A stretch of DNA of 64,000 bases, taken from the NCBI RefSeq assembly GCF_051903065.1, contig NZ_CP178438.1; one strand, written 5' to 3'. The translations under genes were made by a program, and so were the position numbers. Source of the DNA: Escherichia coli (GTDB lineage Bacteria; Pseudomonadota; Gammaproteobacteria; Enterobacterales; Enterobacteriaceae). Numbering within the stretch: the first letter of the stretch is position 1; each line of letters starts with the position of its first letter. The notes beneath the pieces were generated by a model. It worked only from the letters and a program-made list of their open reading frames with translations, was not told where the DNA came from and searched no databases. Shown here piece by piece: positions 7,472-53,686 of the stretch.

Positions 7472-8512
7472 ATGCATCGTATAGACACGAAAACCGCGCA
7501 GAAGGATAAGTTCGGCGCGGGTAAGAACGGTTTTACCCGTGGTAACCCCCAGACCGGCACACCTGCCACCGATCTGGATGATGACTACTTTGACATGTTG
7601 CAGGAGGAGCTTTGCAGCGTTGTGGAGGCATCAGGTGCCAGCCTGGAGAAGGGGCGGCATGACCAGTTACTTACCGCACTTCGCGCGCTGCTGTTAAGCC
7701 GCAAGAATCCGTTTGGCGATATCAAATCGGATGGCACGGTGAAAACAGCTCTCGAAAACCTTGGTTTGGCTAATTACGCAGACAAAGCAAGTCTGGCGAA
7801 TCAGGAGTTTTCTGGTCCCGTATCATCTAAAGACTGCGTTACCGCAACATCGGCAGATGGGGTAACCCGCAAAGTATCGCTTAATGCCAGTACGGGTTTG
7901 AAGATAGTTATTTATGATGGCGGAACTTACAAGGGGGCAATAAACATCCCGGCAAAAGACGGGACAATGGCACTTGTATCTGATTTGGCTAATTTTGCTG
8001 ATAAATTGAGTGCTTCTGAGCAATATTTTAAAGGACCTGTTTCATCCGGGGATGGGCTCATAGCAAAATATGGCACCGCAAAAATAATTCTGTCAGCCCA
8101 AAACGGTCAGAGAATTGTTGTTTATACAAACGACACTTACCGTGGAGCTATTAATATTCCACTTCGTGACGGAACTATGGCGCTCCTGGATGATGTTACT
8201 AATGTTAGCGCAACGCTGCTGGGTATATCTCAGTCATGGCAGAACGTGAAAGCCAGCCGTAGTGCCGGGGTTACGTATACCAACTCAACAGGCAGGCCCA
8301 TTGCAGTTTCAATCGCCGGAATAATGGCAACACGTCAGAATGGAGTTCAGTTGTCACTTGCCGTTAATGGCACAGAGGCTTCAAGTTTTGCCGTGACTGA
8401 CAGCTCGTTTGACATCAGGGGTAACGTATTTGCGATTGTGCCACCAGGAGCAACTTACAAACTTACAGCAAATAACATTAATTCTATTTTGACCTGGTCG
8501 GAGCTTCGCTAA
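7472..8512 (+). CDS. Phage tail fibre protein
   Basis: 346 aa; N-terminus [10 protein letters not shown]...[23 protein letters not shown] resembles the conserved tail-fibre N-terminal domain; internal ~60-aa duplication; followed by an assembly chaperone gene. Confidence 0.75.
7749..7774. other. hix/gix-like imperfect palindrome inside the tail fibre gene (candidate invertase crossover site)
   Basis: ctctcGAAAACC-TT-GGTTTggctaat; compare the hix half-site TTCTTGAAAACC; lies at the junction of the conserved N-terminal and variable C-terminal fibre regions (codons ~93-101). Confidence 0.45.
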
Positions 8513-8889
8513 TGAATACGGTAATCAAAGAGCAAAAATTCTTTAAGGACTCGGCCGGTGTGATTTTTTGCATCGACATCATGGAAATGAATGCTGAGTC
8601 ATGGGGTGAAGAAGTACAGGCCGGATGGCAGGAAATTAGTGCCGATGAAGCGCTATTAATTGCTAATCCACCGCCTACAGAGGAACAGCTATTTGAACAG
8701 GTTAGGGCGCAGAAACAGGCCCTGATTTCCGAGGCGACTGCAATTATAGATCCACTTAAGGATGCACTGGATGGTGGCTATATCGACGATGCAGACAAAC
8801 CAAGACTGACTGAATGGCAAAAGTACCGCTATGAGGTGACGAAAGTTGATCCGGGAAAACCTGTGTGGCCACCGAAGCCTACAGAATAG
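8512..8889 (+). CDS. Tail fibre assembly protein (Tfa/U-like chaperone)
   Basis: 125 aa; start overlaps the fibre stop; C-terminus ...KYRYEVTKVDPGKPVWPPKPTE typical of Tfa proteins. Confidence 0.75.
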   Translation: MNTVIKEQKFFKDSAGVIFCIDIMEMNAESWGEEVQAGWQEISADEALLIANPPPTEEQLFEQVRAQKQALISEATAIIDPLKDALDGGYIDDADKPRLTEWQKYRYEVTKVDPGKPVWPPKPTE

Positions 8890-8932
8890 GAACATTTTTT
8901 ATAACCATCAAAAATCTGGTGATATTTCGCCT

Positions 8933-8958
8933 CTTCTCCTGTTTTTACAACAGGAGAA
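8933..8958 (+). other. Perfect 10-bp stem hairpin overlapping the invertase Shine-Dalgarno sequence
   Basis: cttctcctgt-tttaca-acaggagaag; the right arm contains AGGAG positioned 7 nt before the invertase ATG at 8965. Confidence 0.5.
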
Positions 8959-8964
8959 GCACTC

Positions 8965-9528
8965 ATGATTTACGGGTATGTTCGTGTATCAACAAATCAT
9001 CAGGATACAGAGTTGCAACGTCTTGCACTTGAGTCAGCTGGCTGTGAGCGAATTTATGAAGAATATGCCAGTGGCAGAACAGCTAATCGCCCTGTGTTAA
9101 AGGAATTAATTACGGTGATGAAAAGTGGAGATGAGTTGATTGTCTGGAAGTTAGATCGGATAGGGAGAAATGTGCTGCATGCGCTATTTATGTTTCAAAA
9201 TCTGCACGAAAAAGGTGTTAATTTTCGGAGTATTACAGATGGCGTAGACCTGAAAACAGCAAGTGGTCGCTATAATTTCCGTAATATTCTTTCTGCTGCG
9301 CAGTATGAATCTGATTTGAATAGCGAGCGAACTTTAGCTGGTTTGGCTATTGCCAGATCCAAAGGCCGGATTGGTGGGCGTAGACCGAAGTTTAGCGACG
9401 AGCAGTGGCAACAGATGGGAGCGCTCATAGCGGCAGGGAAATCACGGCGTTATGTTGCACGTATCTATAACGTTGGGCTATCAACCCTATATAAACGATT
9501 TCCTGTTACTGGCATTCAAACGAAATAA
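8965..9528 (+). CDS. Serine recombinase, DNA invertase (Gin/Pin/Hin family)
   Basis: 187 aa; MIYGYVRVSTNHQ...LDRIGRN motifs characteristic of resolvase/invertase family; adjacent to tail fibre genes as in the Mu G-segment/gin arrangement. Confidence 0.85.
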   Translation: MIYGYVRVSTNHQDTELQRLALESAGCERIYEEYASGRTANRPVLKELITVMKSGDELIVWKLDRIGRNVLHALFMFQNLHEKGVNFRSITDGVDLKTASGRYNFRNILSAAQYESDLNSERTLAGLAIARSKGRIGGRRPKFSDEQWQQMGALIAAGKSRRYVARIYNVGLSTLYKRFPVTGIQTK

Positions 9529-9671
9529 TTTAAAAGCAATTTAAAGAGTTATTTGTCTAATGTTGGAAGCCGCAGCCACGTCGTATGCAAGAACGTGCTG
9601 CGGCTGGCTGGCGAACTTTCGATAGTGCGAGTATTGAATGATTTCCAGCCGTTACCGATTTTACGTGTTAA

Positions 9672-9920
9672 TTAGTGAACAAACCACTCGTCAGCAGATT
9701 CCCAGGTATCTTTCAGAGTCTCCTGAACAAAAGTTTTTGCAGAATCCTTATCTGCGGTGCGTGTAACAGAAAGGCCATCGTTGCTGGTGGCTTTTACGAT
9801 CACCTCTACATCGTCATAACGTTTACTGATGCGTCGGGTTAATTCTTCCTTTAACGCATCCACAGCACCGGTTGGCATTTTAGTCATTTTTTCTTTGGCT
9901 ATGCAGATTTCAATACGCAT
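9672..9920 (-). CDS. DinI-family DNA damage-inducible protein
   Basis: 82 aa; MRIEI...[24 protein letters not shown]...DEWFV pattern typical of DinI/MsgA; LexA boxes immediately upstream. Confidence 0.8.
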
Positions 9921-9981: not shown

Positions 9982-11079
9982 TCAAGAGGCCTTATTTCTG
10001 CTCCTTTGGAGCTCTTCAAAACGATTATGTAAAGATTTCGGATACAGTTCGGTATATACCTGCCATAGCACGTTTAATGAACGATGCCCTGTAACCTGGG
10101 CGACTTCCTCAATACTAAAACCAGCCTCAAATAAGCGACTTGCCCCTTCTCTACGCAAATCATGGTATCGCAGATCTTTAATACCTAATTTGCTTCTTAC
10201 CCTCTGGAATCCCGCAGTAACAGAAGTGCTGTTATATGGAAAAATGAATTCTGATTTTTTGGGTTGTCGTTGGACGATATCCCAGGCTTCCCCAAGCAAG
10301 GCTACTTTCATATGGTTGCCTTCCTTTTTACGTGGATCTTTCCTGTCTCTTACGAGTATGGATTTTTGTTCCTGATCGAGATCCTCCCATCGTAATCGGC
10401 ATACTTCACCGATTCGCATACATGACCACACAGAAAATTTGAGGATATCAACGAACGGAATTTTTGAGCATTTATGTGTAGATCGTTGTTGAAGACCTTC
10501 AATGAGCATGTCCAGTTCATCAGATGCCGGTCTACGATTACGACGATTTGATTTACCAATTAAACCAAGTTTAAGTAGATATGGACGAGCGGCTTTTGCT
10601 GGGTTTGATGTGTAATTAATTCCATATACAGGTTTGGCAGCATCCAGAACACTGCCAAGATAACTAACATCGTGGCTAACTGTAGCTGGACCTGCACCAG
10701 CGTTGTTTCTTAGCCTGCAATGTTCAATTACGTCATTTTCTGTCAGTTCAGATAGTTTGAGCGCGGAGACGTCACTATCCATAAGCAGTTCCAGCACATA
10801 TCTTTTAGTACGGCCTGCTTTACCTCCGGCATTTGGGTCATTTAAATATTTGTGTAGTAAGTCACGGACTGTAAGTCCGTCAACTGCATTTGATGATGGA
10901 ATGCCATATAGATCTAATTCCATCACTTTCTGTGTGCCCCATGTTTTGGCATGAGCATGTTTAGGGAATGTTTTACTTTCCCTGTAAGTGATAACACCTT
11001 TTTCTTTGATAATCACATTACAGCGATAGCGTGGTGTGCCATCGGATTTTAGTCGTTTCTCTATGTTATAGTATGCCAT
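9982..11079 (-). CDS. Tyrosine-type phage integrase
   Basis: 365 aa; C-terminal region with R...HDLRR...Y spacing typical of tyrosine recombinases; GAGG RBS 8 nt upstream; terminal position of the prophage next to dusA. Confidence 0.8.
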   Translation of the reverse strand: MAYYNIEKRLKSDGTPRYRCNVIIKEKGVITYRESKTFPKHAHAKTWGTQKVMELDLYGIPSSNAVDGLTVRDLLHKYLNDPNAGGKAGRTKRYVLELLMDSDVSALKLSELTENDVIEHCRLRNNAGAGPATVSHDVSYLGSVLDAAKPVYGINYTSNPAKAARPYLLKLGLIGKSNRRNRRPASDELDMLIEGLQQRSTHKCSKIPFVDILKFSVWSCMRIGEVCRLRWEDLDQEQKSILVRDRKDPRKKEGNHMKVALLGEAWDIVQRQPKKSEFIFPYNSTSVTAGFQRVRSKLGIKDLRYHDLRREGASRLFEAGFSIEEVAQVTGHRSLNVLWQVYTELYPKSLHNRFEELQRSRNKAS

Positions 11080-11095
11080 TACACGACCTCGTTAT

Positions 11096-11145
11096 TTCGG
11101 GTTCCCATAAAACGTGGGAACCTGTGCGGGAACCTAACGCGAGAA
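11096..11145. repeat. Cluster of three GGGAACC(C) repeats between the integrase start and dusA (candidate integrase-binding or att-associated repeats)
   Basis: cGGGTTCCCataaaacgtGGGAACCtgtgcGGGAACCtaa. Confidence 0.4.
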
Positions 11146-11167
11146 AAATAGCCTGAAATGTTCAAAA

Positions 11168-12205
11168 ATGCACGATAATCATGAAACACAAAAAATTAAT
11201 CAAACCAGCGTGATGCCTGAAAAAACTGGTGTTTACTGGAATTCTCGGTTTAGCATTGCTCCTATGCTCGACTGGACGGACAGACATTGCCGCTATTTCT
11301 TGCGTCTGCTTTCCCGCAATACGTTGCTGTATACCGAAATGGTGACTACAGGGGCGATTATTCACGGTAAAGGTGATTATCTGGCGTACAGTGAAGAAGA
11401 ACATCCGGTAGCGTTGCAACTGGGCGGTAGCGATCCGGCGGCGCTGGCGCAGTGTGCGAAGCTGGCAGAAGCGCGCGGATATGATGAGATCAACCTGAAT
11501 GTCGGCTGCCCGTCTGACCGGGTGCAGAACGGCATGTTTGGTGCGTGTCTGATGGGTAATGCGCAGCTGGTTGCCGACTGCGTGAAAGCGATGCGCGATG
11601 TGGTGTCGATTCCGGTGACGGTGAAAACGCGTATTGGCATCGATGATCAGGACAGCTATGAATTTCTCTGCGATTTCATCAACACCGTTTCCGGCAAAGG
11701 CGAGTGTGAGATGTTCATCATCCATGCACGTAAAGCCTGGCTTTCGGGGTTAAGCCCGAAAGAAAACCGTGAAATCCCGCCGCTCGATTATCCGCGTGTG
11801 TATCAACTGAAGCGTGACTTTCCGCATCTGACAATGTCCATTAACGGTGGCATCAAGTCGCTGGAAGAAGCTAAAGCGCATTTGCAACATATGGATGGCG
11901 TGATGGTCGGGCGCGAGGCGTATCAGAATCCGGGTATTCTGGCGGCGGTAGACCGGGAGATCTTTGGTTCCTCGGATACCGATGCCGATCCGGTTGCGGT
12001 AGTGCGCGCCATGTATCCGTACATTGAGCGTGAACTCAGCCAGGGGACGTATCTCGGCCATATTACCCGGCATATGCTGGGCTTGTTCCAGGGTATTCCT
12101 GGCGCGCGGCAGTGGCGGCGTTATTTAAGTGAAAATGCCCATAAAGCGGGTGCAGACATTAATGTGCTGGAACACGCGCTCAAACTGGTGGCGGATAAGC
12201 GTTAA
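11168..12205 (+). CDS. dusA: tRNA-dihydrouridine synthase A
   Basis: 345 aa; recognised DusA sequence and K-12 synteny (dusA-pspG-qorA-dnaB); extreme N-terminus may be prophage-supplied. Confidence 0.9.
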
Positions 12206-17806: not shown

Positions 17807-18027
17807 TGCAGGAAAGCAGGCTGGAGTTACCCAGCCTGCAGTGAAATTAAACTGTCGTCGCTTTCACTCTTTCTTTATAGATGATTTTTTTGATGCCATC
17901 GTTCTACGTAAGAGATAATAAACGTTATTAGTTCTTTTATTGTTAAGCTTATCCCAATTATCTGGAATTCCTTATCCTGTTTTTTTGTGTGGAGTAATAA
18001 TTTCTGCACATCTAACCATTATTAAAT

Positions 18028-53640: not shown

Positions 53641-53686
53641 ATTTTTAAAGTAAATGCTTTTGGGGGCTTAAGCGCCCCCAAAAGTG
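53641..53686 (-). terminator. Rho-independent terminator of yjcS
   Basis: cttttgggggc-ttaa-gcgcccccaaaag hairpin with flanking T-rich sequence. Confidence 0.7.

Follow-up and report, generated by a model that had tools for sequence, protein, structure and literature searches.

The window analysed here, the whole stretch of 64,000 nucleotides, belongs to an Escherichia coli chromosome with a prophage inserted at dusA. The gene directly upstream of the serine DNA invertase gene, and on the same strand, is the tail-fibre assembly gene tfa, and the local order of genes and crossover sites is as follows.

Before 7472: baseplate genes, the first in the local order
7472–8512, + strand: tail-fibre gene
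7749–7774, + strand: intact-looking crossover site inside the tail-fibre gene (CTCTCGAAAACC TT GGTTTGGCTAAT)
8512–8889, + strand: tail-fibre assembly gene tfa
8879–8904, + strand: hybrid crossover site (CTACAGAATAGG AA CATTTTTTATAA)
8965–9528, + strand: serine DNA invertase gene (187 aa; Resolvase N-terminal domain and HTH_7)
9672–9920, − strand: DinI-like gene
9982–11079, − strand: tyrosine integrase gene, followed by dusA, pspG and qor

The invertase product matches the Pfam families Resolvase (E = 4e-36) and HTH_7 (E = 7e-12), and the columns of the catalytic core are all invariant in the invertase alignment. Its identity to P1 Cin, SfMu Gin and a Pin-type protein amounts to 53%, 50% and 53%, respectively (46–55% for phage-encoded invertases overall). 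Since the product (MIYGYVRVST...) aligns from residue 1 with the Gin, Cin and Pin-type invertases, the ATG at 8965 is, as judged from this alignment, the true start. Both the domains and the adjacent tail-fibre segment with inverted crossover sites are those of a Hin/Gin/Cin/Pin invertase, for which the name "invertase" appears fair.

The crossover site preceding the invertase gene is a hybrid: the AA core and the right half agree with the pix-like site seen in relatives (TTCTCCCAAACC AA CATTTTTTATAA in locus L003 and TTCTCCCAAACC AA CGTTTATGAAAA in a pin-type locus), while its left half consists of the 3' end of tfa, including the TAG stop codon (i.e. a degenerate site). The core of the site inside the tail-fibre gene is inverted with respect to it. 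A single variable cassette (Sv and tfa) lies between the two sites and the window contains no alternative inverted cassette; inversion would therefore break the fibre gene, and the invertible switch in the window looks frozen or degenerate. The same single-cassette layout (tail fibre, tfa, approximately 75 nt, invertase), with the junction ATAGG-AA-CCTTTTTTATAA attached to an unrelated tfa, was observed in L035 (1829–2501) and L074 (1916–2501), and the same junction sequence was present in L030 (~990–1066). In the sequences compared, the single-cassette arrangement is thus recurrent rather than a one-off deletion, and the junction pattern points to either a recurring architecture or a hotspot for recombination at the 3' end of tfa genes.

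Two further features were observed downstream of the invertase gene. A long, G+C-rich inverted repeat (GCCGCAGCCACG...CGTGCTGCGGC, 9547–9602) lies in the gap between the invertase gene and the dinI-like gene, which converge, just past the stop codon of the former; it is not followed by a U-run and gives a sub-threshold Rfam match to CssrB (22 bits, against a gathering threshold of 76). Additionally, the integrase gene adjoins dusA (region 9982–12205), and near-identical invertase/DinI/integrase modules occur at dusA in other E. coli genomes (L001 and L002) as well as in phage SKA5, as would be expected of an integration module specific for dusA.

Structure, strength and conservation of the hairpin

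The leader of the invertase gene contains a hairpin of 11 perfect pairs (8933–8943 with 8949–8959), five of which are G-C, closed by a 5-nt loop and preceded by a second, smaller hairpin (hp1). Its elements, all on the + strand, are listed below.

8918–8931, + strand: small hairpin hp1, GGUGA-UAUU-UCGCC (GGYGA-N4-UCGCC in the clade), one nucleotide upstream of the main hairpin
8933–8943, + strand: 5' arm of the main hairpin, CTTCTCCTGTT (RNA CUUCUCCUGUU), a pyrimidine tract resembling an anti-Shine-Dalgarno sequence
8944–8948, + strand: loop, TTTAC (UUUAC)
8949–8959, + strand: 3' arm, AACAGGAGAAG, holding the Shine-Dalgarno (SD) sequence AGGAG at 8952–8956

The stem is followed by the 5-nt spacer CACTC and then by the start codon (8965–8967), such that AGGAG and ATG are separated by 8 nt. 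The initial annotation had placed AGGAG within the 3' arm of a perfect 10-bp stem, 7 nt from the ATG; the perfect stem and the position of AGGAG were confirmed, while one extra T-A pair brings the stem to 11 bp and the spacing required correction.

Folding of the RNA, a check proposed in that annotation, recovered the stem in every longer context tried, from 8890 onward, where it was the dominant feature of each fold. The isolated 27-nt hairpin has a free energy of −14.9 kcal/mol (ViennaRNA), and relative to dinucleotide shuffles the 8890–8990 RNA scores z = −4.4. The free energy of the hairpin is −16.7 kcal/mol at 30 °C, −13.5 kcal/mol at 42 °C and −5.9 kcal/mol at 70 °C, and it is thus predicted to stay folded to at least 70 °C. 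Perfect hairpins of at least 11 bp with loops of 3–9 nt are expected 0.085 times per block-shuffled window, with 6.5% of shuffles containing any. Because the real window contains eight distinct perfect hairpins of at least 10 bp, most of them terminator-like, the stem by itself is only modestly unusual. Its non-randomness lies in its exact placement over the SD sequence and in its conservation in relatives. The possibility of a known RNA family was dismissed, as Rfam gave no match overlapping 8918–8967 at E values up to 10.

To express the strength of the block, an opening cost was defined as the free energy needed to make positions −16 to −4 single-stranded in the context −60 to +21 relative to the start codon. 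At the window invertase this cost is 14.8 kcal/mol, as against 7.5 ± 2.5 kcal/mol for 100 dinucleotide shuffles of the upstream leader (one of which was as high), while the remaining members of the clade have costs of 14.5–15.2 kcal/mol, a level that none of their 100 shuffles reached. Among the window ORFs of at least 150 aa (n = 72; median 5.7 kcal/mol), the invertase ranks second, the top-ranked ORF being one that directly follows a hairpin at 53657–53684 and whose start may be wrongly assigned. In the Salis and de Smit–van Duin models, the excess of 7 kcal/mol over shuffles would correspond to an approximately 30-fold reduction in an empirical ribosome-binding-site model and to far more under strict equilibrium. 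An in silico mutant with five bases of the 5' arm scrambled and the SD sequence intact has an opening cost of 5.5 instead of 14.8 kcal/mol. Similarly, the computed cost is at least 14.1 kcal/mol if the 5' end of the RNA lies at or upstream of 8933, 4.0 kcal/mol if it lies at 8940 and 2.5 kcal/mol at 8944; the block would thus vanish in any transcript starting at or downstream of 8940.

Viral contigs were scanned for relatives with a peptide seed, E. coli genomes and a single Shimwellia genome were added, and conservation was assessed across 85 loci (78–99% protein identity) with 34 distinct leaders, a column being counted as variable if the minor allele occurred in at least two sequences. The pattern TTCTCCTGTT-N5-AACAGGAGAA is present in all leaders of the clade, with a single C.A mismatch in one sequence. 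Only 2 of the 22 stem columns are variable, and these two are the partners of the outermost pair, as against 32 of the 53 other non-coding columns (Fisher p = 3.5e-5) and 45 of the 50 third codon positions of the first 50 codons (p = 3e-11). In the 5' arm, 10 of the 11 columns are invariant or vary in singletons only among the 34 distinct leaders. Nine of the 11 pairs show no variation at all and one is compensatory, the outermost pair being C-G in the lineage of the window and U-A in the others; overall, pairing is maintained in 98.5% of cells across 17 distinct sequences. The loop, constant in length, varies freely in sequence (UUCAU, UUCAC and UUUAU in relatives), as does the 5–6 nt spacer to the ATG, and AGGAG is covered exactly by the 3' arm in all 34 leaders.

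RNAalifold independently predicted the same main hairpin as well as hp1. Covariation in the main stem is confined to one pair in three distinct sequences and probably reflects a single event; the case for the structure is therefore one of conservation and not of covariation. Both arms are under strong purifying selection in the relatives. The invariance of the 5' arm in particular needs explaining because this arm neither encodes protein nor serves as the SD sequence, and its complementarity to the SD arm would be the obvious explanation. In hp1, the stem is conserved and the loop variable, and its stem changes are solely from U.G to C-G or from G-C to G.U. This tolerance of U.G and G.U pairs fits a + strand RNA, and a conserved hp1 hints that transcription begins somewhere upstream of 8918.

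The window leader itself was observed to be a mosaic: the part from ~8891 to 8922 (including the right half of the crossover site) resembles the L003 type (74% identity), and the hairpin haplotype (C-G closing pair, loop TTTAC and spacer CACTC) and the gene resemble the L002 type. This leader is also present in strain 23CRST027 and in phage SKA5.

Candidate roles of the hairpin

Transcription signals were sought across 8300–9800. A terminator consensus scan of both strands identified no terminator-like site in this region, and thus none between tfa and the invertase gene, while a promoter scan returned no + strand site at threshold. By eye, TATAAC (8900–8905) and GATATT (8921–8926) are + strand promoter candidates, as is TGGCATSAT in the gin and pin clades. 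The sole promoter-like match in the scanned region lies on the − strand (8965–8992, TTGATA-16-AATCAT). It would drive an antisense RNA over the start codon and the hairpin, and it may be fortuitous because both hexamers are located in constrained coding sequence.

On this evidence, the hairpin is probably a cis-acting translational brake in the leader of the invertase mRNA, a role that the initial annotation had put forward and that computation supports (an SD sequence within a stem of −14.9 kcal/mol, an opening cost of 14.8 kcal/mol and conservation of both arms). As in SD-sequestering repressor elements, a stem covers the SD sequence and its pairing is kept in relatives. Both arms would be present in transcripts that begin at 8933 or further upstream, including those reading through from the tail-fibre gene and tfa; their source might be the tail operon or a weak promoter overlapping the crossover site (e.g. 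TATAAC at 8900–8905). In such transcripts, the SD sequence would be paired as soon as it is transcribed, in an 11-bp stem with the anti-SD-like 5' arm, and the 30S subunit would have to pay about 14–15 kcal/mol to expose it, such that initiation would be rare and would occur via rare opening of the stem. The invertase would consequently number just a few molecules per cell, however strongly the gene is transcribed, which would suit a low-frequency inversion switch. This reading presupposes transcription of the 5' arm, selection for pairing in the RNA and not for a palindrome in the DNA, and an actual reduction of translation, all three of which we infer. Against it, covariation is limited to one pair, the strong block is not shared by Mu gin, e14-type pin or P88, and a stem of about −15 kcal/mol could block translation almost completely.

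A block of that strength seems too strong for mere tuning, which argues for a gate, in which the hairpin would form in some transcripts only or would depend for its opening on RNA processing or on a trans-acting RNA or protein. This reading is considered unlikely, although it finds some support: read-through transcripts are to be expected as no terminator separates tfa from the invertase gene, and the SD sequence is freed where the 5' arm is missing, the computed opening cost being 14.1 kcal/mol for a 5' end at 8933 and just 2.5 kcal/mol for one at 8944. Furthermore, the Gin and Pin-type relatives possess the conserved TGGCATSAT, a candidate extended −10 element, right before their weaker pyrimidine arm. 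In the clade of the window, however, no −10-like hexamer is positioned for a start inside the hairpin, and the conserved hp1 immediately upstream behaves like transcribed RNA. With regard to an opening factor, no com-like gene was noted among the neighbouring ORFs, and the one other near-copy of the arm in the window (with one mismatch, at 17971) is at chance level. Should the hairpin act as a gate, the invertase would be translated solely from transcripts whose 5' arm is missing, cleaved or bound by an RNA or protein acting in trans, and fibre switching would be tied to a phase of the prophage life cycle or insulated from late read-through of the tail operon; the logic would resemble that of IS10 or Com/mom, of which the literature searched contains no description for serine invertases.

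Opening by a translating ribosome was also considered. An ORF (8846–8968) ends at a TGA overlapping the ATG of the invertase gene, in an ATGA arrangement; it has no start codon near the hairpin, and it is interrupted by stop codons in most relatives. Ribosome-mediated opening through coupling is thus unlikely, because no leader ORF is conserved through the hairpin.

A DNA palindrome bound by a protein would yield the same pattern of conservation as a selected RNA stem. The hairpin could accordingly be an operator in which RNA pairing is incidental, the invertase itself being a possible binder because both arms carry, at their outer side, the hexamer TTCTCC that also forms the outer end of the crossover half-site TTCTCCCAAACC. 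The perfect two-fold symmetry, the constant 5-nt spacing, the invariance of the arms in the clade and the symmetrical change of the single variable pair are all compatible with this, as is the TTCTCC common to the arms and the left crossover half-site. Nevertheless, an operator is judged quite improbable: the palindrome is centred on a single base, which makes it 25 or 27 bp long where a crossover site has 26 bp around a 2-bp core, the inner motif AAACC shared by crossover sites is missing, and no second copy exists elsewhere in the window. Moreover, the outer bases of the left crossover halves vary between loci (CGCCTAAACC, GTTCGAAACG and others) while those of the hairpin arms stay the same, pairing with the AGGAG of the SD sequence by itself already requires CUCCU in the 5' arm, and the arm of mEpX1-type leaders is complementary to the SD sequence by way of U.G and G.U pairs, which would be mismatched in DNA. 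A crossover site proper (gix/pix/hix; 26 bp, with 12-bp half-sites TTnTCnnAAACC and a 2-bp core) was rejected, as the hairpin is centred on one base, lacks AAACC and has just the outer TTCTCC in common with such sites.

It is very unlikely that the hairpin serves as a 5' mRNA-stabilising stem-loop, or in transcriptional pausing or attenuation, with little effect on initiation. A transcription start just upstream of the stem, as may be surmised from the sequence, would place the hairpin very near the 5' end of the mRNA; yet a stabiliser need not contain the SD sequence, whereas AGGAG lies exactly under the 3' arm in 34 of 34 leaders, and the absence of a U-tract speaks against attenuation or termination.

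Finally, an intrinsic terminator of the tail operon, the other role suggested in the initial annotation, can be discounted almost entirely: despite a stable stem-loop 44 nt past the tfa stop codon, the stem continues into CACUCAUGAUUUAC with no U-tract on either strand, the consensus scan was without matches, G-C pairs make up just 5 of 11, and the invertase ATG always follows the hairpin by 5–6 nt in relatives that have an opposite-strand gene before it. The latter arrangement was found in L002, in L003 (of the 74%-identical group) and in phage SKA5, whose upstream neighbour is an inverted tail-fibre cassette, and in approximately 72 E. coli genomes with an invertase gene more than 99% identical, of which L002 is an example, similarity to the window starts only 52 nt upstream of the ATG. 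Because of this homology block and the opposite-strand cassette upstream in relatives, the hairpin, found 5–6 nt before the invertase ATG in all relatives, is assigned to the invertase module, with which it moves, and not to the end of the tail operon.

Comparison with other invertase leaders and known systems

The opening-cost calculation was extended to approximately 90 invertase leaders, from Enterobacterales to Actinobacteria. A family-wide rule of SD masking failed, as costs above those of shuffles were confined to the clade and a few scattered loci (L095, 11.8 kcal/mol; L103, 11.7 kcal/mol; L101, 11.2 kcal/mol; and P1 cin, 9.0 kcal/mol). Mu-type gin (2.9 kcal/mol), e14-type pin (4.6 kcal/mol) and P88 (1.9 kcal/mol) do not exceed their shuffles, nor do most of the others. 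Among the leaders compared, the strong block is thus a derived feature of the clade with 78–99% identity and not a rule of the family.

The gin (Mu/SfMu), e14-type pin and P1 cin loci display a homologous layout, in which the crossover site is followed by a leader of ~50–75 nt and the invertase ATG. The pin-type leader contains a homologous but imperfect stem (AUCUCCGG-UUUUUAUU-CAGGGGAU), the perfect 11-bp stem being confined to the clade of the window. In P1 cin (L085), a 9-bp stem with two wobble pairs (GCUUGCUAU / AUAGUGAGC) was observed over the putative SD sequence at −33 to −8; its opening cost of 9.0 kcal/mol compares with 5.7 kcal/mol for shuffles, 5 of 100 being as high, and its 5' arm overlaps a TATAAA box and may therefore escape transcription. 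In the mEpX1 sister clade, the SD sequence is a relocated GGGUGA, with which the CUUCACCUG arm can form a duplex that includes G.U wobbles. A compensatory re-creation of the stem in mEpX1 was considered and is given no weight, as the opening cost of ~6 kcal/mol is not above that of shuffles.

Additionally, the motif TGGCAT[G/C/T][A/C]T is conserved ~35–20 nt before the start codon of gin, pin and related genes (L086, L090, L093, L004, L087–L089, L095–L098 and L102), and it looks like an extended −10 element (TGn and CATGAT). If it is a promoter, transcription of these genes would begin within the weak pyrimidine arm or beyond it.

Hairpins that sequester an SD sequence in cis are known, one example being the leader of Mu mom, which is opened by Com, and such hairpins were reportedly analysed by de Smit and van Duin. 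They share with the present case a local stable stem formed by the SD sequence and an upstream pyrimidine-rich, anti-SD-like arm, with a predicted drop in 30S binding that scales with stability. The hairpin described here differs in being unusually stable and perfect (11 bp, −14.9 kcal/mol), in its location on a serine invertase gene and in having no known activator. RNA thermometers (ROSE, fourU) likewise enclose the SD sequence in a hairpin, while the stem in the window is free of mismatches and weak pairs; a thermometer was rejected, as the stem does not melt in the range of 30–42 °C (−13.5 kcal/mol at 42 °C).

In IS10/Tn10, translation of the transposase is subject to fold-back inhibition in read-through transcripts. 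The likeness is apparent in that a DNA-rearranging enzyme is kept scarce, its ribosome-binding site is paired with upstream sequence and protection is afforded from outside transcription. In IS10, however, the 5' arm is located upstream of the element's own start, such that its own transcripts escape, whereas hp1 suggests that the native transcript of the invertase includes the 5' arm.

DNA invertases must be made in tiny amounts, and the accepted controls operate at the DNA level (Fis and the enhancer, site topology) and through weak promoters. Within the library searched, the full texts yielded no report of translational control of invertase genes, nor of mapped pin or gin starts. As the mechanism is a textbook one, the gain is incremental, and what is new is the instance at a serine invertase gene. 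A near-invariant, SD-masking hairpin across the clade would add a post-transcriptional layer to the control of these invertases. A translational brake would also explain how these prophages cope with a recombinase gene that no terminator shields from strongly expressed late tail genes, and it would offer a simple handle on inversion frequency, since mutation of the 5' arm should raise invertase levels.
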